From: Escherichia coli | GTDB taxonomy: Bacteria; Pseudomonadota; Gammaproteobacteria; Enterobacterales; Enterobacteriaceae | Reading direction: 5' to 3' (one strand) | Length of the DNA: 64,000 bases | Assembly (NCBI RefSeq): GCF_003019035.1 | Contig: NZ_CP027448.1 | In this document: piece by piece, positions 26,197 to 57,503 of the stretch | Position numbering within the stretch: the stretch's first letter is position 1 | How the letters are laid out: the number at the start of each line of letters is the position of its first letter | Notes under the pieces: model-generated | The model's input: only the letters and a program-made list of their open reading frames with translations | Databases searched by the model: none | What the model was told of the DNA's origin: nothing | Position numbers and translations under genes: made by a program

Positions 26197-26610
26197 AAGA
26201 CAGTACCTTTTAGATTCTGAAATAAGAGTTTTATTTCATCTACTCATAGTATGGTCTGAAAAAATAAGAGCACCCCTAGCAGCGCCCCTAGGGGCATACT
26301 ATAAAAAAACGCACGGCGCTGCTAGGGGCGGCCCTAATATATCCAAATGTTTTTCATGAAAATTGTCAAAACTGACCCTAACAAGGGTCGTCATAGGGTC
26401 GTTATAGGGTCGTCAACGACCCTATTTAATAATGTAAAATAAATTAAAATACATTATTTAGAACATAAACTAATGATTTAAAAAACAAATCAGCAAAAAC
26501 TTGTTTTTGCGTGGGGTGTGGTGCTTTTGGTGGTGAGAATCACCAACCTGTTGAGCCTTTTTGTGGAGTTGGTTAAATTATTTACGGATAAAGTCACCAG
26601 AGGTGGAAAA
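26197..26610 (+). promoter_or_regulatory. oriT: oriT region; nic predicted between 26519 and 26520 on the plus strand
   Basis: Sequence TTTGCGTGGGGTGT/GGTGCTTTTGGTGGTGAGAATCACC matches remembered F nic region; lies between traM and orf169; direct/inverted repeats at 26280-26340 and 26385-26425 are candidate TraM/TraY/IHF sites. Confidence 0.85.
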
Positions 26611-28644: not shown

Positions 28645-28666
28645 CCTGCTTTCTCCTCTCTCTGGT

Positions 28667-29314
28667 TTTCAGCCCCCATCATCTTTTGAGTTTCGGGAGC
28701 CGCGGTTTTGACGTTTTGCGGGGACCTGCCTTTTGTTCCCTCCGGTATTCACCATCACCTTTTTGAGAACCTTCGCCGCAAGGGGCATCACTGCCACGGA
28801 CGGAAACGACTGTCCGGGGGCAGACCGCAAAAGTTTTTGCCTGCTTTTGAGCAAAAAGTTTTGCGGGATGTACATTTCACCCCTGGACTGGCGGAGACGG
28901 TTGTGGCTGTATCAGCCCCCGGCGACAGGGGCTTAAACAGGTGAATGGCACCGGACAGAACAACGGGCAGGGACCCGCCGCAACGACGTGAAGCGCGGTT
29001 TGCGAAACGGCGTTGCCCCTTACATCCCGGCGGCCTTTTGCCGGGATGCCGGGAGCGCAGGCCACGGCGCGACAGAGGCGGCGCGACCGGAACGGTCGCT
29101 GCAAGCCCGGGGTTTTCACGCATCGGACCGTAGCGACAGCCCGAAACCGCGCCAGCGGGTTCGGCGGAGACTGGCAGGTGCGCCAGCAGCTGCCTGTCGG
29201 AGTCGGGCCTGACGACCGGATGCCGCCAAGCAGCCGGGAGCCGAAGGTGCGCCCGGCAGATAGGACAACACTGCAGTAGTCAGAATCAGAGCAGAAAGAA
29301 AAAGAGAATAATCA
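28667..29314 (+). repeat. Structured ~0.63-kb leading-region repeat, copy 1 (Frpo/ssi-like candidate single-strand promoter)
   Basis: Near-identical to 34087-34720 and 37421-38033; contains hairpins (28825-28866; CATCCCGGC...GCCGGGATG); ends about 20 bp upstream of the DUF905 start. Confidence 0.75.
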
Positions 29315-33231: not shown

Positions 33232-34720
<1,489 letters not shown>

Positions 34721-34929
34721 GAAAAAGAAGAACAGTAGCAGTAGCAGTAGCAGGAACAACAACATCAGTAACAGACAAATGACAGGCATGAAGAAACAGA
34801 AGCCCCCATCAGAACGTCCGCGTAATGAAAGGGGCGGCGCGTGAGCGCGGCCCCTTTCAGCGCCACCGGCGCGCGGTCTTTTCCCGGCGCGGGCAGACGG
34901 GCATTTATCCTCCCGCCTGCCCGGCGTCT

Positions 34930-35493
34930 TCAGGCACGCAGACGAATAATCATCGTCGGGACATCGGTATAAGCAAACGTGCCGCGCGGCAGCTCCTCGC
35001 GGACGTCAGAAAACGGTAACAGCTTCTCCTGCTGGCGTGGTCCGTTGAGACAGACGGCGACCAGCACGCCACCCGGACGCAACAGGGAAAAGGCCCGCAG
35101 GATATGCCGGATATCCTGCCCGTGGCTGAACGGCGGATTCATGATAACCCGGCTGTAATACTGCGCCGGCTGCCATTCCATGAAGTCGCCACACTGAACC
35201 CTGACACCGTTAAAATTTTCCCGCAGATACCGGACCAGCCCGCTGTTGATTTCCACCGCATCACACATGGCCCCCGGCGCGGTATCCCGAATCGCCCGCA
35301 GTATGGCCCCGGTGCCGGCAGAGGGTTCCAGAATGTGATCACGGTTGCTGATCTCCGCCAGCATCACCAGGCGATCACAGACCGGGGCAGGAGTCACAAA
35401 AAGCTGAGATTCAGCCCGGATTTCAGCAACCGGCGCGGCGTTATCCAGCCTTGCGCGCATCAGCCGGATACGTTCTCTTAACTGACTGTGCAT
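34930..35493 (-). CDS. Small SAM-dependent DNA methyltransferase-like protein (NPPF motif), orphan
   Basis: 187 aa with motif I-like EPSAGTGAIL and motif IV NPPF; no adjacent restriction enzyme. Confidence 0.7.
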   Translation of the reverse strand: MHSQLRERIRLMRARLDNAAPVAEIRAESQLFVTPAPVCDRLVMLAEISNRDHILEPSAGTGAILRAIRDTAPGAMCDAVEINSGLVRYLRENFNGVRVQCGDFMEWQPAQYYSRVIMNPPFSHGQDIRHILRAFSLLRPGGVLVAVCLNGPRQQEKLLPFSDVREELPRGTFAYTDVPTMIIRLRA

Positions 35494-36953: not shown

Positions 36954-37184
36954 TCAGTTAAAAGCGCGTTTCAGTTCGAGTGTGCGGAGCACCTGCCCGA
37001 AGGCCGTGTTTTTCATGGCGGGGATGTGTACACCACGCCCCCGGTGAAAACTCCGGGCTATGTGTCGCCCGAAGGCTTTCAGCACGGGGTCAATTTCCGG
37101 CGCGGGGATGTCTTCGCGTCTGAAACGGGGATGACGGCGGGGCTTTACAGCCGCTGCGGAAGGTGAAACAATACTTACCGTCAT
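36954..37184 (-). CDS. Small basic hypothetical protein (76 aa)
   Basis: AAGGAG RBS 8 nt upstream of ATG 37184; first ORF downstream of repeat copy 3. Confidence 0.45.
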   Translation of the reverse strand: MTVSIVSPSAAAVKPRRHPRFRREDIPAPEIDPVLKAFGRHIARSFHRGRGVHIPAMKNTAFGQVLRTLELKRAFN

Positions 37185-37420
37185 AAATGAAACTCCTTAT
37201 GACTGTTGAATGGAACCGCAGAAACTGCTCGAACAGTTTTTGCGGTGTGGATTAAGCAGGTCCTCCCCGGCCTGCTTTTTTCATATCTGCGTCTGACGTT
37301 CTCCGGTGTTTTCCTCCTTCTGTTCCTGCGTTCTCATTACCTGCCAGCCGGATGACTGACAGAACAAATAAATGCGTATTGCCGGAGCCTGAAATAAATC
37401 CTGATTTTTAAAGAACATCA

Positions 37421-38033
37421 CCCGTTGAGTTTCGGGAGCCGCGGTTTTGACGTTTCGCGGGAACCTGCTGCTGTATTCCCTGTGGTATGAACTTCACCCG
37501 TTTGAGAACCTTCGCCGCAAGGGGCATCACTGCCACGGCCTGACGCACCTGTCCTGGGCAGAACGCAAAATTTTTTACCGGGTTTGGGGTAAAAAATTTT
37601 GTGGGCTGTTCATTTACCCTGGACAGTCAGTGCGGCAGGTTGTGGCTGTATCAGCCCCCGGCGACAGGGACTCATACGGGTGTGTGGCACCCGGCAGGCA
37701 ATGAGCAGGGACCCGCCGCAACGACGGAGAGCGCGTGCGCGAAACGGCGTTGCCCCTTACATCCCGGCGGCCTTTTGCCGGGATGCCAGGAGCGCAGGCC
37801 ACGGCGCGACAGAGGCGGCGCGACCGGAACGGTCGCTGCAAGCCAGGGGGTTTCACGCATCGGACCGTAGCGGCAGCCCGAAACCGCGCCAGCGGGTTCG
37901 GCGGAGACTGGCAGGTGCGCCAGCAGCTGCCTGTCGGAGTCGGGCCTGACGACCGGATGCCGCCAGGCAGCCGGGAGCCGAAGGTGCGCCCGGCAGACAG
38001 AACAACACTGCAGTAGTCAGAATCAGAGCAGCA
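37421..38033 (+). repeat. Structured leading-region repeat, copy 3 (Frpo/ssi-like), diverged 5' part
   Basis: 3' two-thirds nearly identical to copies 1 and 2; 5' part diverged but hairpin retained with compensatory changes (37563-37603). Confidence 0.75.
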
Positions 38034-38224
38034 GATAAAGGAACAACAACAACATCAGGAACAGTTCCACAACATAAGAAAGAAACACTCCTGAGTCAGA
38101 CACATCACAGACGGGAAGGGTAACGGGCGACGCGCCAGCGTGGCCCGCTTCCCTTCCGGCAGGCGTCAGCCTGCCAGGGGTTTTCGCGCGGGCTGACAGG
38201 CGGCCTCCACCGCCTGCCCCTGTA

Positions 38225-38881: not shown

Positions 38882-39307
38882 TCAGTCCAGTGCCGCGTAA
38901 ATCGCGTTACATTCGGGGTGAAATTCGATGTGGCTCCACAACTGCGCATCGCGCATCCTGTACAGGTGAGTCAGTCCTGCATCACCGCTGTCGTGGTACA
39001 GCCACAACTGACGGTTAATCACAAGGGAAGTCACAATGATGCCTGCGGCATCGGCGCTGACCGTACGGTCAAACCAGTTTTCACCGTTCACCATGTGGAA
39101 ACGGTCGCCATCCGGCATCATGTAACCGCCACCGTCCGGCAGGCGGATGAAGTGCCAGAATCCGCCTTCATATTCCGGCATCATTTTTTTCGCCAGCGCG
39201 TACACAGATGCCTCGGCATACAGAAAATCATTGCCAAACAGATACAGCAGAAAGGAGAGACGGTCGCATTCTTCAACATTCAGAGTGACAGGTTTCGCAT
39301 ACTGCAT
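38882..39307 (-). CDS. ardB: ArdB/KlcA-family anti-restriction protein (141 aa)
   Basis: ...[21 protein letters not shown]...[23 protein letters not shown]... matches remembered ArdB/KlcA pattern; start at ATG 39307 with GGAGG RBS (track ORF begins 39487). Confidence 0.78.
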
Positions 39308-39719
39308 GGGATTTCCTCCGTTGTTCACATATTCCGCGACACCGGGCGGTGCCGTGCCTCCATAAAAGCCGGGCGATAAGGCGGGGATGCACAGGGCGCA
39401 AGGGAAGCCGCAGCCTGACGCACACGGCTGACGGGAGTTGGAGGGGGAGACCGCGAAATCTGAGCGGGTGAACGACCGGAAAATCACGGCAGACGGGAAG
39501 GAGGGACCGGGTGACCGCAGCGTTCATTTTACCCTTGCATCCCCGCCAGCCCGGCTAAGATGGAGGCACGGCACAGCCCGCACACGACACGGTGGCCACA
39601 TAACTGAAAACCCACAAGGCCATGCCTGCATGGCCGGGTAAAGCGGAGCCGGCGGCGACTTCCTTTGTGCTCTGTCCGGGGACCGGCAGAAAAAAAAGCG
39701 GGGATTTTCCCCGCCATCA

Positions 39720-41211: not shown

Positions 41212-41895
41212 TTACGCAGCCTCCGGTTCAAACCAGTTATCATTCGCGGCCCCCTGCTGCATGGCCCGTTGCACGGCGGCCATTCGTTGCTGTCCGGCAC
41301 GGTGATACTGTTCAAGCAGCTCGATACCGATATACCGGCGTCCGGACTGAAGGGCGACCACGCAGGTTGAGCCGCTGCCTGCAAACGGGTCCAGCACAAT
41401 CGCGTTCGGATGTGTGAAGCTCTCAATCAGTGGTTGCAGGCTGGTAACGGGCTTTTCCGTCGGGTGATGGCGGTTGCCTGAATATTTCCAGCCCAGCACG
41501 TCCGGCAGCAGGTTTTGTGGCAGACGTGGACGGCCTTTTGCCAGGATGTAGGCGCATTCGTGGCGATAGCCCACATATGCGGCCTTCGATGTGTAGTTTT
41601 TGGTGAAGACCAGGTGCTCGACCACACTGAATCCCGCATTTTTCCAGGCGGCCATAAAGCGATCGACGCGGTTCCAGCCATAGAGGCTCACCATCAGCGC
41701 GTCTTTTTTCAGCACACGGTACATTTCATTACAGGCCGGTTGCAGCCATTCATCGGTTTTATCACCCGCGATGGTACGTCCCTGACGGTCACGAAAACCG
41801 ACGAGGTACGGCGGGTCAGTCAGCATGAAATCAATGGCGTTATCAGGGATACGGGCCATAACATCGATGCAGTTACCGAGGACAAAACGGGACAT
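41212..41895 (-). CDS. DNA methyltransferase (N6-adenine/N4-cytosine family, DPPY motif), orphan
   Basis: 227 aa with DPPY (motif IV) preceding FAGSGST (motif I); no cognate nuclease nearby. Confidence 0.85.
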   Translation of the reverse strand: MSRFVLGNCIDVMARIPDNAIDFMLTDPPYLVGFRDRQGRTIAGDKTDEWLQPACNEMYRVLKKDALMVSLYGWNRVDRFMAAWKNAGFSVVEHLVFTKNYTSKAAYVGYRHECAYILAKGRPRLPQNLLPDVLGWKYSGNRHHPTEKPVTSLQPLIESFTHPNAIVLDPFAGSGSTCVVALQSGRRYIGIELLEQYHRAGQQRMAAVQRAMQQGAANDNWFEPEAA

Positions 41896-42278
41896 AACAA
41901 CGCTCCTTCTTTCACAGAGGGCACCGGGAGGGCCCCCTGTGGTGCCCGTTCCCCGCTGCCTGTGGGCTGTTCACCGCGTCCGGTAACTGGTCAGGCCGAC
42001 CGTGGAATACCGCAGCCGTCGTCTTTTTGACGGCAAGGTTATGCCGCGAAAGCGGCTTGAAGGGCGTTCATCAGAAAAGGGCGACGGGCTGGCGTACACT
42101 GTCACCGACGCCAGCCGGGAGCGGTAAAAGCGACCGTTCCGTGCCCGCCGGACGCGGGACACTGACCACAGGCAGCGTTCCTGCCGCGCCGCGTCAGCCG
42201 GCGCAGTAAAAAGAGGAGCACGGCGACATCCTTTGTCGGAAAAGAAACGGGCGGTTGCCCGCCCGTCTCCGTCATACT

Positions 42279-43205
42279 TCATCCGCCATAATGCGCCACA
42301 TTGTCGACTATCCACGCAGGTCCGGTGACCTCCGGCAGCTCATCGTCATCTGTCGGGGAAGACCATTCCTGTTCCCCCCACAGAACATCAACAAGCTCTC
42401 CACGCTCATATCGCTGCCAGCCACAGAAATTGCAGCCCTGTTCGGCATACCAGTGCTCCAGCGTGCAGCCGAAACGGCGGCTTAATTCTGCAACAACGTC
42501 GCTTTCCGGCTGACACCACGGCGTGTCAAAATCCACCTGAATGAAGTTTTCTCCCTGACGGCCGATATTCAGGTCATACCCACAAGGCCACTTCACGCCA
42601 TACCGTTCCGTATACCAGTGATATGCAGAAGGAACACCGTTCAGAACACCACCGTTAAAGCCGTTCACTTCAACATCCAGGCGGGTCGGCAGAACCGTCA
42701 GCAGGTCAAACGGCATGGTTTTTTCCGGCACTACGTTGTCACACAGACGGTTCCACCACACCGATACATCCTCGTTACTCCAGAAGCCACACCAGTCACC
42801 TCTTTTTGCGGTGAAAAGTGCGGTGATGGTATCCCTGACATCGTCCGGTAATCCTTCCCAGCGACGCTGTCCAGTACCGCTCTGCAGCCAGAGTTCATGC
42901 AGCATCAGGCAGTTTTGCTCATCCAGCAGTACACCGTCCTGCAGATATGTCAGCCAGCGGGTGAACGCGATATTCTCCGGCGATACAACGCCACGCCCGG
43001 CAGCCGTCAGTCCGGGGCATGGTTCAAACCGCACATCTTCAGTGGTCTGCAGAAGTCCGGCACTTCCGGCCAGAAACAGCTGAATACCTTCATTTGTGGC
43101 GCGGCGATAAAGCGGTGTGACTGCGCCGCTGGCCAGTCGTTTAATCTCAGCGATCTGTGCCGGTTCACCAGAAAAATACATACGATTCGAGCACCAGTTT
43201 GGCAT
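42279..43205 (-). CDS. Conserved leading-region protein with MPNWCxN N-terminus (DUF1281/Api92-like as recalled), 308 aa
   Basis: ATG 43205 preceded by GAGGAGA; track ORF starts 43250. Family name from memory. Confidence 0.65.
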   Translation of the reverse strand: MPNWCSNRMYFSGEPAQIAEIKRLASGAVTPLYRRATNEGIQLFLAGSAGLLQTTEDVRFEPCPGLTAAGRGVVSPENIAFTRWLTYLQDGVLLDEQNCLMLHELWLQSGTGQRRWEGLPDDVRDTITALFTAKRGDWCGFWSNEDVSVWWNRLCDNVVPEKTMPFDLLTVLPTRLDVEVNGFNGGVLNGVPSAYHWYTERYGVKWPCGYDLNIGRQGENFIQVDFDTPWCQPESDVVAELSRRFGCTLEHWYAEQGCNFCGWQRYERGELVDVLWGEQEWSSPTDDDELPEVTGPAWIVDNVAHYGG

Positions 43206-43559
43206 GGGAATTCTCCTCTCACATGCGGCCTCCATCAGGCCGTGCCGCACCTGTAACCGGGCGACCGCATACGAATGCAGGTGCGGCCCCGAAGCCGCAG
43301 CGCGTGGAGGAGGAACGACGAAACGTGACCGGGTGAGGAGGCCGGCGACAGCGACACACTTGCATCGGATGCAGCCCAGTTAACGTGCCGGCACGGCCTG
43401 GGTAACCAGGTATTTTGTCCACAGAACCGTGCACAAAATGCTGTGGATAAGCTGGACACAGCAGCCCACAGCAGGCATACAGCCACACCCTCAGAGAATT
43501 GAACGTTTTTTAGCCGCAACAATGACATTTGACTGTATGTGGATTCAGTTATTAGAATG

Positions 43560-43575
43560 CTGTATATGCATACAG
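43560..43575 (+). promoter_or_regulatory. LexA operator (SOS box) upstream of impC
   Basis: CTGTATATGCATACAG fits CTGT-N8-ACAG; a weaker CTGTATGTGGATTCAG lies at 43542-43557. Confidence 0.75.
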
Positions 43576-43598
43576 CAAAAGAAAAGAGAGATGAGAAC

Positions 43599-43847
43599 AT
43601 GATCCGCATTGAAATTCTTTTCGACCGCCAGAGCACAAAAAACCTCAAATCAGGCACACTTCAGGCGCTACAGAATGAAATCGAACAACGACTGAAACCA
43701 CACTACCCGGAAATCTGGCTGCGTATAGACCAGGGCAGCGCCCCGTCTGTATCTGTCACAGGAGCCCGCAACGACAAGGATAAAGAACGTATCCTGTCTC
43801 TGCTGGAAGAAATCTGGCAGGACGACAGCTGGCTGCCTGCAGCATGA
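43599..43847 (+). CDS. impC: DinI-like small protein (ImpC-like)
   Basis: 82 aa MIRIEILFDRQ...EEIWQDDSWLPAA; start chosen downstream of the LexA box. Confidence 0.75.
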   Translation: MIRIEILFDRQSTKNLKSGTLQALQNEIEQRLKPHYPEIWLRIDQGSAPSVSVTGARNDKDKERILSLLEEIWQDDSWLPAA

Positions 43848-44281
43848 GTACCGTTTATCACCGTCCGGCTGACCCTTCAGGCGATGACAGTTACGTGCGA
43901 CCGTTGTTTGCCGATCGTTGCCAGGCCGGTTTTCCTTCGCCTGCCACTGATTATGCTGAGCAGGAACTGGATCTGAACAGCTATTGCATCAGCAGACCTG
44001 CAGCCACCTTCTTTCTGCGCGCCAGCGGTGAATCGATGAACCAGGCTGACGTGCAGAATGGTGATCTGCTGGTAGTGGACAGGGCCGAAAAACCACAACA
44101 CGGGGACATCGTTATCGCTGAGATCGACGGTGAGTTCACCGTCAAACGACTGCTGTTGCGCCCACGCCCGGCACTGGAGCCGGTTTCAGACAGCCCGGAG
44201 TTCCGCACACTGTATCCGGAAAACATCTGTATTTTTGGTGTTGTCACTCACGTGATACACAGGACGCGGGAGTTACGCTGA
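43844..44281 (+). CDS. impA: UmuD/ImpA-like S24 peptidase subunit of error-prone polymerase
   Basis: 145 aa with Ser-Lys dyad context (ASGESM ... FTVKRL). Confidence 0.88.
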   Translation: MSTVYHRPADPSGDDSYVRPLFADRCQAGFPSPATDYAEQELDLNSYCISRPAATFFLRASGESMNQADVQNGDLLVVDRAEKPQHGDIVIAEIDGEFTVKRLLLRPRPALEPVSDSPEFRTLYPENICIFGVVTHVIHRTRELR

Positions 44282-44407
44282 TGTTTACACTGGCTGATAT
44301 CAACAGTTTCTACGCCTCATGTGAAAAAGTTTTCCGCCCGGACCTTCGCAACGAACCGGTCATCGTACTCAGCAATAACGATGGCTGTGTGATCGCACGC
44401 AGCCCAG
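44281..44407 (+). pseudogene. impB: 5' fragment of umuC/impB-like Y-family polymerase gene, interrupted by insertion
   Basis: Translates MFTLADINSFYASCEKVFRPDLRNEPVIVLSNNDGCVIARSP then homology is lost at 44408. Confidence 0.85.
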
Positions 44408-44453
44408 ATTATGTGGAATTGCAAGTAACGTTGTAGTGCTGATGAGGAAAATT

Positions 44454-46682
44454 TTATCTGACTACAATATTGATATCGTTTTCCGCAACAATCAGCATCA
44501 CGGCAGGTAAACCCTCCACACGCATTTTCTGGTGTAATTTTTTGATTAAATTATCATCTTCATTACTGGCTTTTGCGGAAAAGCCTTGTGGATGGGAGTG
44601 CCATTCGCCAACATAATCGACAACACGAGCGGTCAACTGGTGAACCCGTTCTAATGCTTCTTGTTGTCCCGCTTCTCCCCGGACAAAGGAGGCTGGAGAG
44701 GATTTACTGTCGATAGGTTCAGGGAGCACGTCAACCAGAATAATCGTTTTGTTCTTAAAATCTGTTATGCCAACAATTGCACCTCCTGTTTCATTAGGCA
44801 GTGCCTGTAAGCGGGTGTGCTGCAATTTTTGCGCTAAGCCCTGGTCATATTTAACAACCCATTCGCCAGAAATTATAGATACCACGGAATAGAGTTCAAT
44901 TTCATGTGCATCCATCGCGCCTGATATTTCATCAGATACCCAGATACACAATCGAGCATTTCCTTTGAGTGCAGTCTGGCGAAGTTGGCGTGAGAGGATA
45001 CCGGCATGAACATGAATACATTCACTGGACATACGTACAGAAATATCCCGACATCCACCACCGACCCAACGATCGCCATAATTGTGCTGTAGGTGAGTAC
45101 TTCCCCACTCACTGCTCAAAATTGCCCGATAGTATTGCCCCTCAATTGCATCAATTCGGCATTGTCTGTCTACATCCTCCATTAACATCACGCTAGACTG
45201 ACCCGATGGAGTCAGAAACAGGCTAACTATTCTGGGTATATCATCTTTTAACACTAGAGTCCTCGGCACCTCAAAGGTGGTACTGACATCCACAACTAAG
45301 TCTGCCTCATTCATTGCCTTAGCAATATCATCATCGTCATCAAGAATACTTTTATGGATCGCCTGAGGGAGGGGCTCATGCGGATAAATAGATTTGGCAA
45401 TATGCTGAATAATATGGGGTTTTGAGACTCCAATATGACAATCAAACCCAATATGGCGAGACAAATTATGTGGAAGAAGCCGATCTGGATCAATAAAAGT
45501 CCATGTCCCCCACCCCATTCGAATCCAAATATCAGCCAATGTACTACCAAGAGCGCCAACTCCAGCTAAAATACCTCGAAAAGCTGCACTCTCTGAATCA
45601 ACAGCAGATATGTCTCTCGCATGTGTGGCCTTCATAGCCGAACGTATTTCAACTGGTAAAAGCGGTAATTGTCGCCACTTGGTACTAATTGATCCGCCAA
45701 GAAGCCGTACGCGATGCTGTACTCCTCGCTCATTTTTTGGCGCCAGCATATCTAGTGCAGTGGCAAGTTCACCGAGTGAACTTTGCACAACATAGCCCAT
45801 CACATCCGTACGTTCTGTTTCTCCGTTTCTTAGACGGGGGATCCAAAGCAGGATAAGTAAGCCTTCTCCTTTACCAGACGTTGGGCGGATACCATCACTT
45901 GGTATTGCTTCATAAACAGCGTCAGTTAGTGGTTTTAGGAGCTCACTTCCCCATTCATTAAGTTGTTCTTCTAATTTTCCCAGATTATCCGGGTATGTAG
46001 CCACCGTAGAAACATCGACAGGAGGAACAGCAATAGTTAATAAGCGAAATGGCTTAACGCTTGAGGTATCTTGTTCTGGTACAGCCCTTAAAATAATCGG
46101 TCGCCCCTCACTGACCATCTGGAGACTGAGCTTATTGTCAGTCGCGTGATGATAATCGGGGTAATTGGCTGGCAAAATGAGCTGATAGGGACTCAAATAA
46201 AAAAGTTGCTCAAGTGGCTGATCTTCTCGATGTAGATGCAGTTCGGCCGATTCTCTAAGCCACCAAAAAATGCGCTCAAGGAATCTCTCGGGGGTCCAAC
46301 TGCGCTCAACTGCGCTCCAGGAGGCCTCATATAGGCAAAGAATTCGTGGTGAGCCAGGTTCTCCAGCATGCTGGTGAGAAAGAACAGGGAAATCTTTCCG
46401 CAATGCATGAACCAAGATAGGTATGCTTGATTTGGGATTGACCTCAATAGCCAATCGTTCTTTACGACGAATACGGGCTTGATTACCAGAAGCCACAGTC
46501 CCATCAGCAGCATCAATGATTAGATATTCCGAGCGGTTATCATTTATTTCAGAAAATCGTAATTCTCTGACTGTGACGTAAGGATGATTCTCGCATGCTT
46601 TAAGCAGCGAAATCGTTTGTGGATAAAGGCTATCGCGCCCCGATGAATCGAGGCGCTCACCCAATTCGAAATATTCGATCAT
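44454..46682 (-). CDS. Multidomain E2-like / E1-like (ThiF) / JAB-JAMM peptidase fusion protein (742 aa)
   Basis: HQH..10 aa..C (E2-like), GILAGVGALGSTLADIW...IDPD (ThiF Rossmann), EWHSHPQGFSAKASNEDD (JAMM HxH..S..D) read directly from the translation; ATGA overlap with upstream MBL gene. Confidence 0.75.
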   Translation of the reverse strand: MIEYFELGERLDSSGRDSLYPQTISLLKACENHPYVTVRELRFSEINDNRSEYLIIDAADGTVASGNQARIRRKERLAIEVNPKSSIPILVHALRKDFPVLSHQHAGEPGSPRILCLYEASWSAVERSWTPERFLERIFWWLRESAELHLHREDQPLEQLFYLSPYQLILPANYPDYHHATDNKLSLQMVSEGRPIILRAVPEQDTSSVKPFRLLTIAVPPVDVSTVATYPDNLGKLEEQLNEWGSELLKPLTDAVYEAIPSDGIRPTSGKGEGLLILLWIPRLRNGETERTDVMGYVVQSSLGELATALDMLAPKNERGVQHRVRLLGGSISTKWRQLPLLPVEIRSAMKATHARDISAVDSESAAFRGILAGVGALGSTLADIWIRMGWGTWTFIDPDRLLPHNLSRHIGFDCHIGVSKPHIIQHIAKSIYPHEPLPQAIHKSILDDDDDIAKAMNEADLVVDVSTTFEVPRTLVLKDDIPRIVSLFLTPSGQSSVMLMEDVDRQCRIDAIEGQYYRAILSSEWGSTHLQHNYGDRWVGGGCRDISVRMSSECIHVHAGILSRQLRQTALKGNARLCIWVSDEISGAMDAHEIELYSVVSIISGEWVVKYDQGLAQKLQHTRLQALPNETGGAIVGITDFKNKTIILVDVLPEPIDSKSSPASFVRGEAGQQEALERVHQLTARVVDYVGEWHSHPQGFSAKASNEDDNLIKKLHQKMRVEGLPAVMLIVAENDINIVVR

Positions 46683-47866
46683 TGGTTTGATACACCTGCC
46701 CTAGGAGCGGCGGCCGTAGCAGCACTTACCGCAGCTGAAACAGCACCAACAATAGCGGGTATTAACTTCCCGTCTCCAGCCACTTCAAATTCAAGGAACG
46801 CTGTATCTTTAAGATCCCCCGTACAGCTAAACCAACCATCAACACTGTCCAGAATATCCTCATACTCACGCTTAGCCCGGATGCACGGTGGATCATAATC
46901 ATCATCAAGTATCTGATTGCTACTCGATACAATTGTTGCCCCGGAACGAGCCTGACCTAAAGCATTACGGGCCGCATCACAAACTTCAGCATTCTCCCCC
47001 CATTGTGACCAGCTATCATAGGAAAGTGAATGCCATGAACAATGATGCGGTGTGAGGAGAAGATCATATTCTAGTGCCTCAGCATTGCTTTTGTAACGAT
47101 CCCATAATCGCTCCCAGATGAGAACTTCTGCGTCTCCACCTAATAGAAAGTGCATAGGATTACGGGAATATGCAGAGGGCAGTATTTTCATGTTCATGAT
47201 GATACTGGATTCGTTTTTAGAAAGAGCTTCTTCCAAATATTCATCATCTTCATGTGGTGCGGGCGCCAGAAGCTGTGCGGAGAACACTTCTGAAATTTGC
47301 CCGTCAATTCTGGTGAATGTATCTCCAGCTTTGATAAGAATGGCACTCAGATCATCTGTTTTGCCATTAATATCTTCACCCATGATAAGGATTCGATTAC
47401 CGCTAGATGCATAACCATGTTCCCGCCAGTATTTTACTCGGCGCCGTGCTTCTGTATTAAATGCCTGAGCATCTTCGCAAAGTGTGTGACTTTTGGAACG
47501 ACGCCGAAAAATCAATGGTGATGACCACAATTCTCGAATAATGATACGCTTTTCTGAACGTTTCACATCGTCATCTGGATAATCTTCAGGACGGCCCAGC
47601 CAGAAATGTTTACGCAGGCCACCGCAATGATCCTGATCGGGATGACTGAGCATAAAAACATCAATAAAGGGACGATCTTTTTCATCATACTTCAATCTGC
47701 TACGTAATGCCGAGGCAACATCAGGTGTGTCATCATTGGGGTTATCAGCAGCAGAGCGAATATGTACATCAATCAGAATGGATGTGCCCCGGGTGTCGGC
47801 CAAACGTACCAGTGTCATATCACCGTTGCCGACTTGGAAAAAAGTAATTTTGGCTGCCATCGACAT
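46679..47866 (-). CDS. Metallo-beta-lactamase-fold protein (395 aa) with Ala/Gly-rich C-terminal tail
   Basis: MBL-like motifs ...LIDVH..., SHPDQDHCGG, ...TPHHCSWH...; C-terminus ...AIVGAVSAAVSAATAAAPRAGVSNQ. Confidence 0.75.
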   Translation of the reverse strand: MSMAAKITFFQVGNGDMTLVRLADTRGTSILIDVHIRSAADNPNDDTPDVASALRSRLKYDEKDRPFIDVFMLSHPDQDHCGGLRKHFWLGRPEDYPDDDVKRSEKRIIIRELWSSPLIFRRRSKSHTLCEDAQAFNTEARRRVKYWREHGYASSGNRILIMGEDINGKTDDLSAILIKAGDTFTRIDGQISEVFSAQLLAPAPHEDDEYLEEALSKNESSIIMNMKILPSAYSRNPMHFLLGGDAEVLIWERLWDRYKSNAEALEYDLLLTPHHCSWHSLSYDSWSQWGENAEVCDAARNALGQARSGATIVSSSNQILDDDYDPPCIRAKREYEDILDSVDGWFSCTGDLKDTAFLEFEVAGDGKLIPAIVGAVSAAVSAATAAAPRAGVSNQ

Positions 47867-47994
47867 CTCCTTTAGGGATACGAAAGATTGAGGTTAAGAG
47901 CATCTATTGCTAAGATACATCTAGTAATTATACTAGTCTAGTAATTAGACGTATATTTTGGACTTAAATTGTAAGTACAGGAAATTATTGATAA
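47867..47994. promoter_or_regulatory. Divergent promoter/operator region with tandem direct repeats (TCTAGTAATTA x2)
   Basis: AT-rich intergenic region between divergent MBL operon and WYL gene; repeats at about 47918-47950. Confidence 0.4.
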
Positions 47995-48849
47995 ATGAGT
48001 GATAAAATGGTGAGAACTGGTCATTGGAGCCAAGAAAGACGGCTTGAATTCATCGATTTTCGCCTACTGTGGGAAGGTCGGCTTAACCGTGCAGATCTCA
48101 CGACATTTTTCAGAATTTCAGTTCCGCAAGCCTCATTAGATTTGGCAAAATATCAAGAAGTTGCGCCAAACAACATGGTGTATGATCGAACTCAGAAGGC
48201 TTACATTACGACTCCTGATTTCAAACCTGTTTTTACAAGCTTTGACAGTAATCATTACCTGAATGAACTACTTGGGCGAGAAAATGAAATAGTGGATCCT
48301 GATGATAGTTTCATTGGGTGGGTACCCCCGGTAGCCAGCCTTCCTCTCCCTGCCAGGAAAGTACAACCTGAAATATTGATTGATTTAATTCGAGCCATGC
48401 AAAGAAAACAGGCTTTGGTTGTTGATTATCGCTCAATGACTAATGAACCAGCAATTCGTACGCTATACCCAACAGCATTTGCACATGATGGGCATCGGTG
48501 GCATGTTCGTGCTTATTGTTTTAAGTCTACAATGTTTAAAGATTTTGTTCTTGGTAGGTTTTTTAAAATCGTTGAATTTGTTTCCCCACCGACATCAATT
48601 CCACAAGATGTGGACTGGAATACATTTATTGACGTGGTAATAGGTCCAAACCCTAACTACGATATGAATAAACGGCTATCTATTGAACATGATTATCAAA
48701 TGGTAAAAGGAGAAGCAAAAATCCACATACGTAAAGCGCAATTATATTATCTTAATCGTCGATTAAATTTGGATGTAAATAGCGATGGTTCAATAGATGA
48801 CAAACAGCAGATCATCATGCTCAGAATAGACGAGTCTAAAACCTATTAA
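47995..48849 (+). CDS. HTH-WYL domain transcriptional regulator (BrxR/CapW-like)
   Basis: 284 aa; central ...HDGHRWHVRAYCFKSTMFKDFVLGRFFKI... fits the WYL pattern; N-terminal HTH-like region. Confidence 0.7.
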   Translation: MSDKMVRTGHWSQERRLEFIDFRLLWEGRLNRADLTTFFRISVPQASLDLAKYQEVAPNNMVYDRTQKAYITTPDFKPVFTSFDSNHYLNELLGRENEIVDPDDSFIGWVPPVASLPLPARKVQPEILIDLIRAMQRKQALVVDYRSMTNEPAIRTLYPTAFAHDGHRWHVRAYCFKSTMFKDFVLGRFFKIVEFVSPPTSIPQDVDWNTFIDVVIGPNPNYDMNKRLSIEHDYQMVKGEAKIHIRKAQLYYLNRRLNLDVNSDGSIDDKQQIIMLRIDESKTY

Positions 48850-48861
48850 GGGAATATTTAT

Positions 48862-49380
48862 ATGAATGCGAATGATGTTAACAAACGGAATAAAGAATGG
48901 ATGATTGTAATCATTATTATCTATCTTTTTATTTTGTTATGTATAGCAACATACGCTATTGGGGCTATGTCTCTAGGTTGGTTACCAACACCTTACGCAC
49001 CATTAAGGGTGCCACTGATGTGCGGAGCAATTGCCTATATAGGTGGTTGTTTATATTGTTTTCGTGCAATTTACCTCAATAAATGTATTAGAAAACAATG
49101 GGATCCAGATTGGCATGTATGGTATTTCATTCGCCCACTGACCAGTACAATCGCAGGTGCTATCAGTTATTTATTCCTTAAGGCGGGGTTGTTAGTTTTG
49201 GAGTCTAGTTCCAATGTAGGAGCTAGTGAAATGGGTTTCTTTGCGCTGGCATTTATTGCTGGTTTTAACGTCGATAAATTTGTCGCAAAAATCGAGGAAG
49301 TTGCAAAGGCTGTCTGGGGTATTGAAAAAACTCGAAGCTCGACTAATAATGATGCGAAAAATTCGGAAAAAAAAGAATAG
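48862..49380 (+). CDS. Small membrane protein (about 4 predicted TM helices, 172 aa)
   Basis: Hydrophobic segments throughout; 12 bp downstream of the WYL gene. Confidence 0.55.
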   Translation: MNANDVNKRNKEWMIVIIIIYLFILLCIATYAIGAMSLGWLPTPYAPLRVPLMCGAIAYIGGCLYCFRAIYLNKCIRKQWDPDWHVWYFIRPLTSTIAGAISYLFLKAGLLVLESSSNVGASEMGFFALAFIAGFNVDKFVAKIEEVAKAVWGIEKTRSSTNNDAKNSEKKE

Positions 49381-52696: not shown

Positions 52697-53841
52697 AAGC
52701 GAAGCGGCTGGGCATAAAAATGGGAGTACCGTGGTTTCAGCTGAAGTCGGTGAAATTTCCGGAGCCGGTCATCGCCTTCTCCAGTAATTACGCGCTATAC
52801 GCATCGATGTCGAACAGGGTTATGTCTCATCTCGAGGAGCTGGCGCCGGGCGTGGAGCAGTACAGTATTGATGAGATGTTTCTCGACGTGCGGGGTATTG
52901 ACAGCTGCATCGATTTCGAGGATTTCGGCCGGCAGCTGCGTGAACACGTCAGGAACGGGACTGGCCTGACTATCGGTGTCGGAATGGGGCTAACCAAAAC
53001 GCTGGCAAAGTCAGCACAGTGGGCTTCCAAAGAGTGGCCACAGTTTGGTGGCGTGCTGGCGTTAACGCCAGGCAATATCCGCCGTACGGAAAAACTGCTG
53101 TCACTGCAGCCGGTGGAGGAAATCTGGGGGGTAGGCAGCAGGATATCAAAGAAGCTGAACACAATGGGGATAACAACTGCACTGCAGCTGGCGCGCGCTA
53201 ACCCTGTATTTATCAGGAAAAACTTCAATGTGGTTCTGGAGAGAACGGTCCGGGAACTCACCGGAGAAAGCTGTATTTCACTGGAGGAAGCACCGCCCCC
53301 CAAACAGCAGATAGTCTGCAGCAGGAGCTTTGGGGAACGTGTCACAACTTATGAAGCCATGCGACAGGCAGTTTGTCAGTACGCTGAGCGTGCAGCTGAA
53401 AAGCTGCGCGGCGAGCGTCAGTTCTGCAGGCATATTGCCGTGTTTGTGAAAACATCGCCGTTCGCCGTAAATGAGCCCTACTACGGTAATCTGGCCAGTG
53501 AAAAACTGCTCATCCCCACGCAGGATACACGGGACATCATTGCCGCTGCCGTCAGAGCTCTGGACAGGATCTGGGGGGATGGTCACCGTTACGCAAAGGC
53601 AGGCTGTATGCTGAACGATTTCGCTCCTGACGGGGTTTCGCTGTTGAACCTGTTCGATGATACTCAGCTCCGAAGCAACAGCAATCAGCTGATGAAAGTT
53701 GTGGACGGTATTAATCATTCAGGACTCGGAAAAGTGTGGTTTGCAGGCCGGGGGATTGCATCTGAATGGCAAATGAAACGGGAGATGCTTTCACCAGACT
53801 ATACAACTCGCTGGTCTGAACTACCAGTAGCGAAATTATGA
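52697..53841 (+). pseudogene. impB: 3' portion of umuC/impB-like Y-family polymerase gene (continues frame of 44281-44407)
   Basis: EAKRLGIKMGVPWFQLKSVKFPEPVIAFSSNYALYASMSNRVM...SRSFGERVTTYEAMRQAV... matches remembered UmuC/MucB; track ORF 52720-53841 starts at internal Met. Confidence 0.88.
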
Positions 53842-53977
53842 GTCACGTAGAAGTTGAGAAAAAGTGGTGATTTCAGTGTGAAAGAATTTTTATTTTTCTT
53901 TTATAATCAAAGAAGTAGCCATGAAATAGGCATGGTGAAAAACATAAGACAAGGATGCTCTCCGGCATCCTTGTCGC

Positions 53978-54949
53978 TTACTCACTTGACTCAGGAAGTC
54001 TTTCCAGAATACGTTTTATTGCCTCATCTATCTCCGACTGTGCCTCAGCGGAAATGCGGGAAAACTCATAAACAACAAGTCGTTTCTTTGAATCAATTTT
54101 CTTTCTTGCAAATTGGTTGCGATCTGAAAATTCTCTCAGCTTCTCAGTTTGAACCGTGCGGGTCGGGCGAACTATCAGCGATTTGCTCTCAGCTCTGATA
54201 ACAGCCAGAATTTTGCTTTTATCAATTGCCGGATAATCTGGCATGGTCTTCAACCGATGCTGAACTTTTTCCATCAGTTCTGTTACTGATCTTTGCTTGT
54301 TGTTTGCTTCTTCAGCTAGTTTCAGTAAAAAATGATAATCCGGCAACGAAATATCATTTATCACAGGGAAAACTGCAACCATTTCATCTGGCACTGCTGC
54401 GGCCTGAAACGCACGAGTCACTTTCGCAGGAGAGAGATTTTCTGCCTGAGCAATCTCTTCCTTCGTCATACTGGTTCCATACGTAACTTCGAGTCGTTTT
54501 CCCAGCTCACGCAAGCTATGCTCACGTGCGGTTTGTATGTCTTTTGCCAGTTGTCGTGCATCTGACAGTTCAATATCGTCCTTTGTAACAAGTATTTCGA
54601 ATTTAACATTGCTATAAATGCAGGCTGCCCGGCGACGTGTGCCGTCCAGGATCTCAATTCGCCCGTTGACCTCTCTCCCAATAGCGGGGAAAAACTGCTG
54701 CAGTTTTATGGTACGGGAAATGTCACTGACTGACTCAGGGGATAACATTGCCTGGTCGCGACCATTAACAGATGAATCAACAAATGTCTTCGATTCGATC
54801 TCACCGCTTAGCACAACCGTTTTCACAAATTTGGCCTGTTTACCAGATTTGAGAGTAAAGGTTTTCACATCGCCATCGCTTTCAAGCATTCGCGCAAATT
54901 CTGAATTGCTGTTGCCAAGAACTCGGCCACGAGCTAAAACTTTCCTCAT
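53978..54949 (-). CDS. parB: ParB partition protein (P1/P7-type)
   Basis: 323 aa, ParB-like HTH region; 4-nt overlap with parA. Confidence 0.82.
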   Translation of the reverse strand: MRKVLARGRVLGNSNSEFARMLESDGDVKTFTLKSGKQAKFVKTVVLSGEIESKTFVDSSVNGRDQAMLSPESVSDISRTIKLQQFFPAIGREVNGRIEILDGTRRRAACIYSNVKFEILVTKDDIELSDARQLAKDIQTAREHSLRELGKRLEVTYGTSMTKEEIAQAENLSPAKVTRAFQAAAVPDEMVAVFPVINDISLPDYHFLLKLAEEANNKQRSVTELMEKVQHRLKTMPDYPAIDKSKILAVIRAESKSLIVRPTRTVQTEKLREFSDRNQFARKKIDSKKRLVVYEFSRISAEAQSEIDEAIKRILERLPESSE

Positions 54950-56151: not shown

Positions 56152-56569
56152 TGTTTTCCCCTTCCCCTAAAGATGGATTCCTTGCGCGTCAAATATGTGT
56201 AAAGCTTAATCACATTGTACACAACACAACAAAACGTACAACATTTATAACCACGACATTAAATTAATGTACGTGGCATTATATTTATCACCAAAAGGAA
56301 TAGGTAGTGCTCGCCGCAGCCTTGAGACCGAGCATCGCGAGCGAACTGGCGAGGAAGCGCAACGGCGCTATAGTCACATAATGCTCGTACGCACCTGATT
56401 TAAAGGATATTGTGGGAAACACCCAAAGTTTTCTCTGACAGTTCAGATCAACTTTTCCACATACTCACAGACTGTTTTTTAAGCTATTTTTATTCCTTTT
56501 TAAAAGTTTTCTCCTTTTTGTCCATTTTAGGATGCCCAGAGACCGCGTCATGTCTGCCTTTCAGGCCTC

Positions 56570-56700
56570 CTTTATGGGAATCACCCAGGGTTATGCTGGG
56601 AAATACCACGGATTAATATGGGTAACAGCCCGAATTTTTATGGGAAATGCCACGAGTTGGTATGGGAAACACCTCGTATTGCTATGGGAAACGCCCCTGG
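56570..56700 (+). repeat. Iteron array upstream of rep (six about 22-bp repeats, core ATGGGAAA)
   Basis: Repeats centred near 56573, 56597, 56618, 56641, 56663, 56685. Confidence 0.7.
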
Positions 56701-56744
56701 TTTAAATTCGTGTTTTATGACTGTGGATAACACGTTAATTTCCC

Positions 56745-57503
56745 TTGTTGGATGGGCTTTTGCATGACAATATGGGCGAGTTAAAAACAACCCATACGAT
56801 AATGACAATGACAATAAGTACCGCGAAAAAATCAGTCAACATTAGTCAATCCAATGAACTGACAGAAGCAGCTTACTACTTGCCGTTGCAAGCCAAGAGG
56901 GTGCTATGGTTATGCCTTATTCAGTGCTATCCACTGAAAGATGATCCTGATTCGGTATCGCCAGTATTCACAGTTCTTGTTGCTGATTATCAAAAGTATT
57001 TCAAAGTGTCTGTTGATACAGCGTCATCTGATGTTAAAAAGGGCGTCACTGCACTGGCTGAAAGTAGTGTTGTGTTTTATCCCAAAGACGGAGAGTTTGA
57101 CGAGATCAAACGGCCCTGGCTGGCTGAGGCTGGGCTAAAAAAAGGGCGCGGAAAATGGCAAATTGAATTTAATTACAAAGTCATGCCCTATCTGATGGGA
57201 CTGACCAGCCAGTTCACCACGTATTCACTCTATGACTGCGGAAAAATAAACAGTGTTAGGGTCATTCGACTGTATGAAAGCCTGTGCCAGTACCGTTCCA
57301 GCGGAGTATGGGTTACTACTCAGGAATGGCTGTCAGAGCGATTCATGCTTCCTGAATCGCAAAGATCAAACTTCGCTGAAATGAAGAGAACGTTTATCAA
57401 TCCGGCACTGAAAAAGATAAACGCAAATACACCACTTAAAGCCGCAATGACACAGAATGAAGATGGCAGGTTAGTCTTCACCATTGTTGATTCGAAAAAC
57501 TAA
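56745..57503 (+). CDS. Iteron-binding replication initiator (RepFIB-like)
   Basis: 252-aa ORF flanked by iterons on both sides; true start may be upstream non-ATG. Confidence 0.7.
   Translation: MLDGLLHDNMGELKTTHTIMTMTISTAKKSVNISQSNELTEAAYYLPLQAKRVLWLCLIQCYPLKDDPDSVSPVFTVLVADYQKYFKVSVDTASSDVKKGVTALAESSVVFYPKDGEFDEIKRPWLAEAGLKKGRGKWQIEFNYKVMPYLMGLTSQFTTYSLYDCGKINSVRVIRLYESLCQYRSSGVWVTTQEWLSERFMLPESQRSNFAEMKRTFINPALKKINANTPLKAAMTQNEDGRLVFTIVDSKN

Follow-up and report, generated by a model that had tools for sequence, protein, structure and literature searches.

A structured leading-region gap of an Escherichia coli IncF-type plasmid is very probably its copy of the class 3 (ssp3) single-stranded DNA promoter

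Introduction

In F-like plasmids transfer of the nicked strand into the recipient runs 5' to 3' and begins with the leading region, and promoters that work on single-stranded DNA (ssDNA) allow anti-defence genes to be expressed between plasmid entry and second-strand synthesis. Wen et al. (NAR 2025, PMC12672017) describe six operons induced in early pESBL transconjugants, the M.EcoGIX operon among them, with a strongly folding segment before each and each start site mapped by 5' RACE (rapid amplification of cDNA ends). The same account distinguishes class 1 (Frpo/ssi1-3), class 2, found before klcA and ardA, and class 3, a separate hairpin 5' of M.EcoGIX, and it states that classes 2 and 3 are conserved in F. 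A 2026 preprint (10.64898/2026.01.09.698686) names these promoters ssp1-3, swaps ssp2 of F for ssp3 and reports ssp3 to be a promoter of equivalent strength without roadblock activity. Here, we analyse a gap of 383 nt (positions 41896-42278) between a DNA methylase gene and a DUF1281 gene in 64,000 nt of Escherichia coli DNA (NCBI RefSeq assembly GCF_003019035.1, contig NZ_CP027448.1). This whole stretch, called the window below, is an IncF-type plasmid, and the gap falls within its leading region. Judged by its homologues and its fold, the part from 41896 to about 42236 is very probably this plasmid's copy of the class 3 ssDNA promoter (ssp3), which would drive the leading-region methylase operon.

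Results

The gap is bounded by the ATG of the methylase gene (41895-41893, minus strand) and the stop codon of DUF1281 (42279-42281), and a description made earlier from the letters alone (the sequence-only reading) was very probably correct in calling it non-coding. It aligns with positions 54398-54781 of pESBL (NC_018659.1) at 96.1% identity over 384 columns, with about 15 differences, and with positions 53781-54165 of the F plasmid at 94.8%. In the gap identity to pESBL is higher (96.1%) than in the methylase gene (89.6%), and compared with a pKpQIL-type plasmid the core stands at 82.7% and the neighbouring coding sequence at 69.9%. The gene order in pESBL is the same as here (DUF1281, 'hypothetical', methylase), and the methylase shares 92% of its amino acids with M.EcoGIX of pESBL (208/227, BLASTP). 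On the right the module has an edge of its own, given that matches in R100-type plasmids stop at query position 341 (about 42236). The sequence-only reading had guessed at a single-strand promoter or regulatory element and had proposed a comparison with other IncF leading regions; this comparison supports the guess, the gap being a 96% orthologue of the pESBL segment that holds the published class 3 promoter. The element, which is strongly conserved and judged to be functionally important, is therefore already known as the orthologue of a published one, and the earlier interpretation is supported.

The strand and the direction of transfer fit as well. An F-type nic sequence, GTGGGGTGT/GGTGC (the slash marks the nick), lies on the plus strand at 26510-26524 (with flanks TTTGCGTGGGGTGT/GGTGCTTT, about 26,505-26,530), which places the nick near 26.52 kb, not far from the end of traM near 26,197. 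Because this nic is on the plus strand and the leading-region genes are all on the minus strand, the plus strand is the one that is transferred and also serves as template for these genes. The gap is about 15.4 kb from the nick.

We applied the search recipe of Wen et al. (300-nt sliding windows in steps of 10 nt, DNA parameters, threshold -75 kcal/mol), to 26-44.8 kb. The segment 41910-42209 folds at -88.3 kcal/mol, where the mean of the region is -50.8 (standard deviation (sd) 12.9). Six segments fall below -75 kcal/mol: the three large repeats of the leading region, 39280-39649 (class 2), 34800-35129 and the ssp3-type segment. The segment 34800-35129, which passes the threshold as transferred-strand DNA, lies partly inside the open reading frame (ORF) 34930-35493 and adjoins a class 1 repeat.

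The large repeats are class 1 elements. Within each lies a hairpin of about 284 nt whose 5' arm bears an invariant TTGAGA-N17-(C/T)ATCAC. A blastn search of the gap against the whole window gave only chance matches of 20-22 nt to them (E = 0.24-2.9), in line with the earlier suggestion of an element unrelated to these repeats. The class 2 segment is 96% identical to F 56341-56782, which stands before the F antirestriction gene (yfgB in the preprint). On the 3' arm of its hairpin (about 39330-39600) stands TTGCAT-N15-TAAGAT, in which the A at -11 is mismatched. For the gap itself, an Rfam scan of 30-50 kb gave only a chance-level match to Erse (RF02757; 19.5 bits, below the gathering score of 138; E = 0.075). 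The Rfam family AS-pc01 (RF02875, 'Antisense to pHK01_035') matches elsewhere in the window, at 37179-37280 on the plus strand (89.7 bits against a gathering score of 79).

The whole gap, with a GC content of 0.64-0.66, folds far better than shuffled sequences on both strands in the folding check that the sequence-only reading had suggested. The 383-nt plus strand folds as DNA at -109.6 kcal/mol (z = -6.3), with none of 100 shuffles as good, and the minus strand folds as RNA at -193.8 kcal/mol (z = -5.1). An alignment of 35 distinct copies (A3), which are related sequences and thus not independent trials, gives a consensus fold of 68 pairs in which 97.4% of cells are paired. Nineteen pairs have changed on both sides, against 9.6 (sd 1.3) in column shuffles, none of 500 of which reach 19, and 3-8 with slid partners. 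Such covariation upholds the further conserved GC-rich structure that had been suspected in the gap. The main feature is an imperfect 30-nt inverted repeat, 41954-41983 / 42148-42177, around a branched top (Table 1).

Covariation is clearest in the lower 12-14 bp of the main stem, which read CGCTGCCTGTGG in Escherichia, TGCCGCACGCTGCC in Klebsiella, TGCTGCCCGGAGCC in Citrobacter and TACTGCACGGGGCC in Hafnia; the sequence is wholly different among the four genus groups and is matched in each by the partner arm. Six pairs of the 12-bp helix have changes on both sides. In the side hairpin, two of the three pairs of h2 are compensatory (AU:19/GC:12 and UA:24/CG:9), and the GC-rich palindrome GCCGTC-GTCTTTTT-GACGGC, which the sequence-only reading had pointed out, is present at 42015-42034 with compensatory changes in three of its five pairs (helix 9). 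Unlike the stems, the mismatch bubble is constant in sequence, with (C)TGT(T/A)C on the 5' arm and nACACTG on the 3' arm. Below the main stem, the basal helix places the template for the Shine-Dalgarno region in a duplex.

Leftward transcription out of the hairpin would make the 5' arm the template and therefore the 3' arm the non-template strand. On the 3' arm nACACT is the only conserved -10-like element, and in the window it reads GACACT. A42159, C42162, T42163 and G42164 are invariant in all 35 homologues. The A.C mismatch at -11 and the T.T mismatch at -7 are found in 34 of the 35 (the exception, L017, has an aberrant left arm), and the bases between them pair. The second and sixth bases of a -10 element are the two that sigma-70 reads base-specifically. 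We thus propose nACACT as a candidate -10 in a bubble that leaves A(-11) and T(-7) unpaired. The freely covarying 12-bp helix after the bubble would then be the downstream duplex containing +1, and the predicted 5' untranslated region (UTR) of about 66 nt would hold the side hairpin and the Shine-Dalgarno sequence. The corresponding start would lie at about 54715 in pESBL, 67 nt before the M.EcoGIX ATG at 54782, and at about 54099 in F (NC_002483.1). Duplex DNA has GTGAACAG as the non-template sequence facing the 5' arm, which lacks a T at -7, and consensus and weight-matrix scans found no duplex-type sigma-70 promoter on either strand of the gap. Silencing as double-stranded DNA would be explained by these two features.

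Three other promoter candidates were set aside. The best plus-strand pair, CAGAAA-N17-TACACT (42072/42095), would have its -10 in a 12-nt hairpin loop and the hexamer itself as template for +1, a geometry that excludes it. GGGACA-N18-TATGCC is present in pESBL and is missing from the window and from F, and TTGACG in the palindrome 42015-42034 is not conserved.

Taken together, these elements suggest the following course of events. During conjugation the plus strand would enter the recipient 5' to 3' from the nick, and once the segment had arrived, about 15.4 kb on, it would fold on itself into a long stem with a three-way junction on top. The folded DNA would be recognised by host sigma-70 RNA polymerase and transcribed leftward with the 5' arm as template, so that the methylase and the downstream genes would be made before the complementary strand exists. 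Second-strand synthesis would then remove the hairpin and turn the promoter off.

The top of the structure behaves differently from the stems near the candidate -10, which covary freely: between genera as far apart as Escherichia, Edwardsiella and Erwinia the apical sequence (41986-42066 in the window) hardly changes, a conservation far beyond the need of structure alone. The inner fold is drawn in two ways, with a GCGAAAGC mini-hairpin in the minimum free energy (MFE) fold of the window copy and with long hairpin A in the consensus; a double change in a single lineage (Kp_L006) favours long hairpin A. The window copy has four private changes (T41988, A42133, T42138 and a 1-nt deletion near 41934), which are probably shared with CP055749, a sequence 99.5% identical over the gap. 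Three of the four break consensus pairs near the junction (helices h6 and h10), and the changes favour an alternative local hairpin, 42118-42125 / 42133-42140. Among the best 5,000 PLSDB records only two have at least 99% identity to the window copy.

The invariant top also bears on the idea that the element is mainly or additionally an ssi site that primes complementary-strand synthesis, either through a host priming factor that reads the apical domain or with the RNA polymerase transcript itself as primer. Transcripts of Frpo/class 1 elements prime DNA synthesis in vitro and apparently in vivo too, and the apical domain contains AAGCGG and GCGAAAGC, which we take to be of the kinds seen in PriA-type sites and in very stable DNA mini-hairpins. 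A literature search for AAGCGG together with the primosome nevertheless gave nothing, and the preprint (10.64898/2026.01.09.698686) sees early conversion at ssp1 loci and a roadblock at ssp2, and for ssp3 gives only promoter strength. We therefore consider a priming role unlikely.

The structure could in principle act mainly as RNA. The gap would then be the leader or intercistronic region of a DUF1281-methylase transcript, and pairing of 42206-42219 with the Shine-Dalgarno region (41902-41915) would repress methylase translation. The stable fold of the minus-strand RNA agrees with this, as does the pairing of the Shine-Dalgarno region with an upstream GCUCCUC, and GAGGAG recurs at this position of the basal helix in most homologues. 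The strand comparison points the other way. Under DNA parameters the plus strand is the more stable one in all 35 homologues, with a mean margin of 5.7 kcal/mol, and under RNA parameters in 34 of the 35; the background strand difference across the window is +1.1 (sd 4.0), with 5.5% of scanned windows reaching -5.7. Better folding of the transferred strand is common to all five candidate ssDNA promoters in the window. An A.C pair on the plus strand is a G.U pair on the mRNA, and in the main stem (I1) we count 37 G.T cells, spread over eight positions of which four are supported by several sequences, against 4 single A.C cells. Each strand's own alifold model gathers its own wobbles, and only the main-stem count and the energy asymmetry are informative; together they lean towards the transferred DNA strand rather than the mRNA. 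Moreover, a strong predicted terminator between DUF1281 and the element leaves little read-through RNA to be expected, R100- and Klebsiella-type plasmids have no co-oriented gene directly upstream of the element, and the published data concern ssDNA-dependent transcription. Regulation at the RNA level thus appears very improbable, although pairing of the Shine-Dalgarno region could act as a secondary safety device of the ssDNA promoter.

The gap also carries an annotated ORF. The Prokaryotic Genome Annotation Pipeline (PGAP) places a 103-aa hypothetical protein on the minus strand, from within the main stem to the end of DUF1281; the annotation, which pESBL (54394-54705) and F (53784-54089) have as well, goes under WP_011254640, WP_001310011 and WP_010892536 in thousands of plasmid records. 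If real, such a protein would be translationally coupled to DUF1281 through the ATGA overlap, and both the ATG/TGA overlap and the many annotations speak for it. However, the ORF matches no family in Pfam or NCBIfam, in Klebsiella plasmids it is either marked as a frameshifted pseudogene or not annotated, and in R100-type plasmids its start and N-terminus are different. Stops occur in all three core frames in 31 of the 35 homologues, the longest open frame moves between groups, and indels between groups are not multiples of three, while substitutions compensate across stems and are not codon-patterned. A coding function is thus hardly credible, and the ORF is probably a spurious artefact of GC-rich DNA. 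RefSeq records in their thousands would accordingly carry the promoter element as a hypothetical protein.

That the gap is just a terminator and a spacer folding strongly on account of its high GC content is practically negligible, given that dinucleotide-preserving shuffles are 29 kcal/mol worse, that covariation is far above the controls, that conservation of the core exceeds that of the flanking coding sequence in the pKpQIL-type comparison above, and that the module is duplicated before other genes.

The terminator itself is present. The sequence-only reading had described a terminator-like hairpin of the upstream gene; the hairpin exists, its true place being about 7 nt further right than was said, and its assignment to DUF1281 fits the anatomy. 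On the minus strand it reads GGAGACGGGCGG-GCAA-CCGCCCGUUUCU followed by UUUUCC and begins 10 nt past the DUF1281 stop codon, with a core stem 42247-42254 / 42259-42266 that can be extended to 42243-42270 and a U-run at 42238-42246. The RNA of the 52-nt segment that holds it (42230-42281) folds at -24.3 kcal/mol. A consensus terminator scan did not report the hairpin at 42238-42270, and we infer that the scan extends the stem into the T-run. R100-type plasmids have no DUF1281 gene, and their homology ends at about 42236, immediately short of the hairpin; the hairpin is thus part of the DUF1281 module and separate from the promoter. In its stem, its GCAA loop and its U-run after a stop codon it is like Rho-independent terminators; its U-run is interrupted (UUUCUUUUCC), and termination here is a prediction.

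The segment is found in at least 5,000 PLSDB plasmids and in 3,447 of 5,426 complete E. coli genomes, with identities that nearly always lie in the range 95-99%. For wider sampling, species-representative genomes were scanned with an invariant 18-mer and then with nhmmer, which gave copies in Citrobacter, Klebsiella, Raoultella, Enterobacter, Cedecea, Hafnia, Edwardsiella, Erwinia, Buttiauxella and Entomohabitans, many loci having two or three. Where a downstream gene can be recognised (29 copies), the end of the element is 41-50 nt 5' of a start codon on the same strand. This gene is usually a methylase and otherwise a DUF1281 gene or the gene of a protein of about 77 aa, three families in all. 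In other Enterobacterales plasmids the element is duplicated before DUF1281 genes and before the gene of the protein of about 77 aa, which begins MTVKAFINRLSxYPDDALCCGTFWLADDFL... and has no Pfam match. Upstream of the window's own DUF1281 gene there is no such element. Near-identical copies of the E. coli type also lie on three contigs (L015, L017 and L020) from metagenome-assembled genomes binned as Oscillospiraceae, Clostridiales and Oscillibacter, which are most likely misbinned enterobacterial plasmid contigs.

Further right in the window, dinI-like and umuD genes are followed by a umuC reduced to 51 codons (44281-44436) and then by a cargo block encoding ThiF-family, metallohydrolase and WYL-domain proteins, all within 43539-49380. 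The cargo block looks like the insertion that truncated umuC.

Table 1 Features of the gap, its surroundings and related elements; positions are those of the window unless a contig is named.
Feature	Coordinates	Strand	Remarks
Whole class 3 / ssp3-type module	41896-42236	+ (transferred strand)	Homology to pESBL and F; left end adjoins methylase ATG
Basal helix, 5' half	41902-41915	+	Partner 42206-42219 (GTAAAAAGAGGAGC); inverted repeat I5, DNA MFE fold
Side hairpin, helices h1/h2	41926-41953	+	In 5' UTR under proposed start; DNA MFE fold, covariation
Template arm of perfect 12-bp helix	41954-41965	+	Partner 42166-42177; inverted repeat I1
Mismatch bubble, template-arm side	41966-41973	+	GCTGTTCA
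Conserved 10-bp helix above bubble, 5' arm	41974-41983	+	Partner 42148-42157; promoter about -22 to -13 (proposed); helices 4 and 5
Apical domain	41984-42147	+	Consensus three-way junction
Junction helix	41986-41990 / 42138-42142	+	Consensus fold
Long hairpin A	41991-42060	+	Holds palindrome 42015-42034; consensus fold
Domain B	42062-42135	+	With hairpin 42090-42095 / 42108-42113; consensus fold
Candidate -10 GACACT (family nACACT)	42158-42163	+	Inside bubble, non-template arm
Predicted transcription start, +/- 2 nt	41961	-	7 nt 3' of candidate -10, projected across helix
Shine-Dalgarno sequence AAGGAG	41903-41908	-	7 nt 5' of methylase ATG; read from sequence
Intrinsic-terminator-like hairpin and U-run of DUF1281 gene	42238-42270	-	GC-rich stem 8-12 bp, GCAA loop
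PGAP 103-aa hypothetical protein ORF	41971-42282	-	ATG 42282-42280 overlaps DUF1281 TGA 42281-42279
DNA methylase gene (N6/N4), M.EcoGIX type	41212-41895	-	Pfam PF01555, NCBIfam PRK13699
DUF1281 (Api92-like) gene, upstream neighbour	42279-43250	-	Pfam PF06924, PF18406
tra operon	222 to about 25,700	-	
Three large repeats, class 1 (Frpo)	28665-29302, 34088-34725, 37404-38039		93-97% to F Frpo1/Frpo2 regions
Class 2 / ssp2 segment	39280-39720		5' of KlcA/ArdB-type antirestriction gene; -84 kcal/mol per 300 nt
Duplicated element copies, other Enterobacterales plasmids	L007:2485-2953, L012:2822-3170, L049:599-952		
Further duplicated copies	L008:2486-2830, L032:13503-13849, L047:6390-6735, L057:3274-3621		

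Discussion

Homology, position, transferred-strand folding and covariation all point to a class 3 ssDNA promoter in this gap, and several observations weigh against that reading or against the anatomy proposed for it. Promoter activity has been measured in pESBL and F, which are other plasmids than that of the window, and the window core folds at -75.0 kcal/mol, compared with -80 to -83 kcal/mol in pESBL, R100-type and related copies. The -10 and start-site assignments are candidates predicted from sequence, and there is no acceptable -35 at 16-18 nt 5' of the candidate -10. In class 1 elements the best promoter-like match lies on the 5' arm and points to the loop, the opposite of what is proposed here for class 3, and geometries other than the proposed one may be in use among ssDNA promoters. 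As for the strand, the mRNA-sense RNA is also well above chance (z = -5.1), and on the pairs common to both strand models the wobbles tie, at 8 G.T and 9 A.C.

A more far-reaching and tentative proposal, which we regard as possible and on the whole rather doubtful, is that the -10 is recognised through two pre-flipped bases with no -35, that the nearly invariant top (41986-42135) is a sequence-specific docking platform for a host factor, and that the element is a portable, combined promoter and priming site with an architecture unlike that of Frpo. Docking candidates would be the alpha or sigma-4 domain of RNA polymerase, SSB or a PriA-type primosome. If true, plasmids could place this portable module before whichever gene is required on entry. 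Precise targets for mutagenesis are offered by the covarying stems, by the invariant unpaired A and T and by the invariant top.

As a class 3 ssDNA promoter, the element would control a promiscuous methylase that shields incoming DNA from restriction. Its reuse before three gene families suggests a portable, self-extinguishing promoter, which could be of use for engineering.

At the M13/f1 minus-strand origin, too, folded ssDNA with promoter-like features recruits host sigma-70 RNA polymerase. That origin makes a short primer and not an mRNA, and it is not known to be related to class 3 in sequence. Closer are the Frpo/ssi1-3 elements (Masai and Arai 1997; Couturier et al. 2023, PMC9849209), with which the present element shares the principle of a leading-region hairpin on the transferred strand that host RNA polymerase reads only while it is single-stranded, as well as mismatches in the -10 and the folding bias towards the transferred strand. 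However, Frpo/ssi1-3 are simple hairpins with a -35/-10 match, whereas the class 3 element here has a three-way top, no -35 and a candidate -10 on the 3' arm pointing outward. PMC10104558 likewise concerns ssi3 and not the class 3 element. Class 2 / ssp2 is a leading-region hairpin promoter too and has the 3'-arm orientation proposed for class 3, but its sequence is unrelated, and ssp2 acts as a roadblock to replication that UvrD resolves, an activity that ssp3 is reported to lack (10.64898/2026.01.09.698686). Compared with class 3 of pESBL and ssp3 of F, the element is the same by descent: it ends at the methylase ATG and has the same neighbourhood, the same strand relative to oriT and the same folding-energy signature, and of its differences from the pESBL copy four are private to it and weaken consensus helices.

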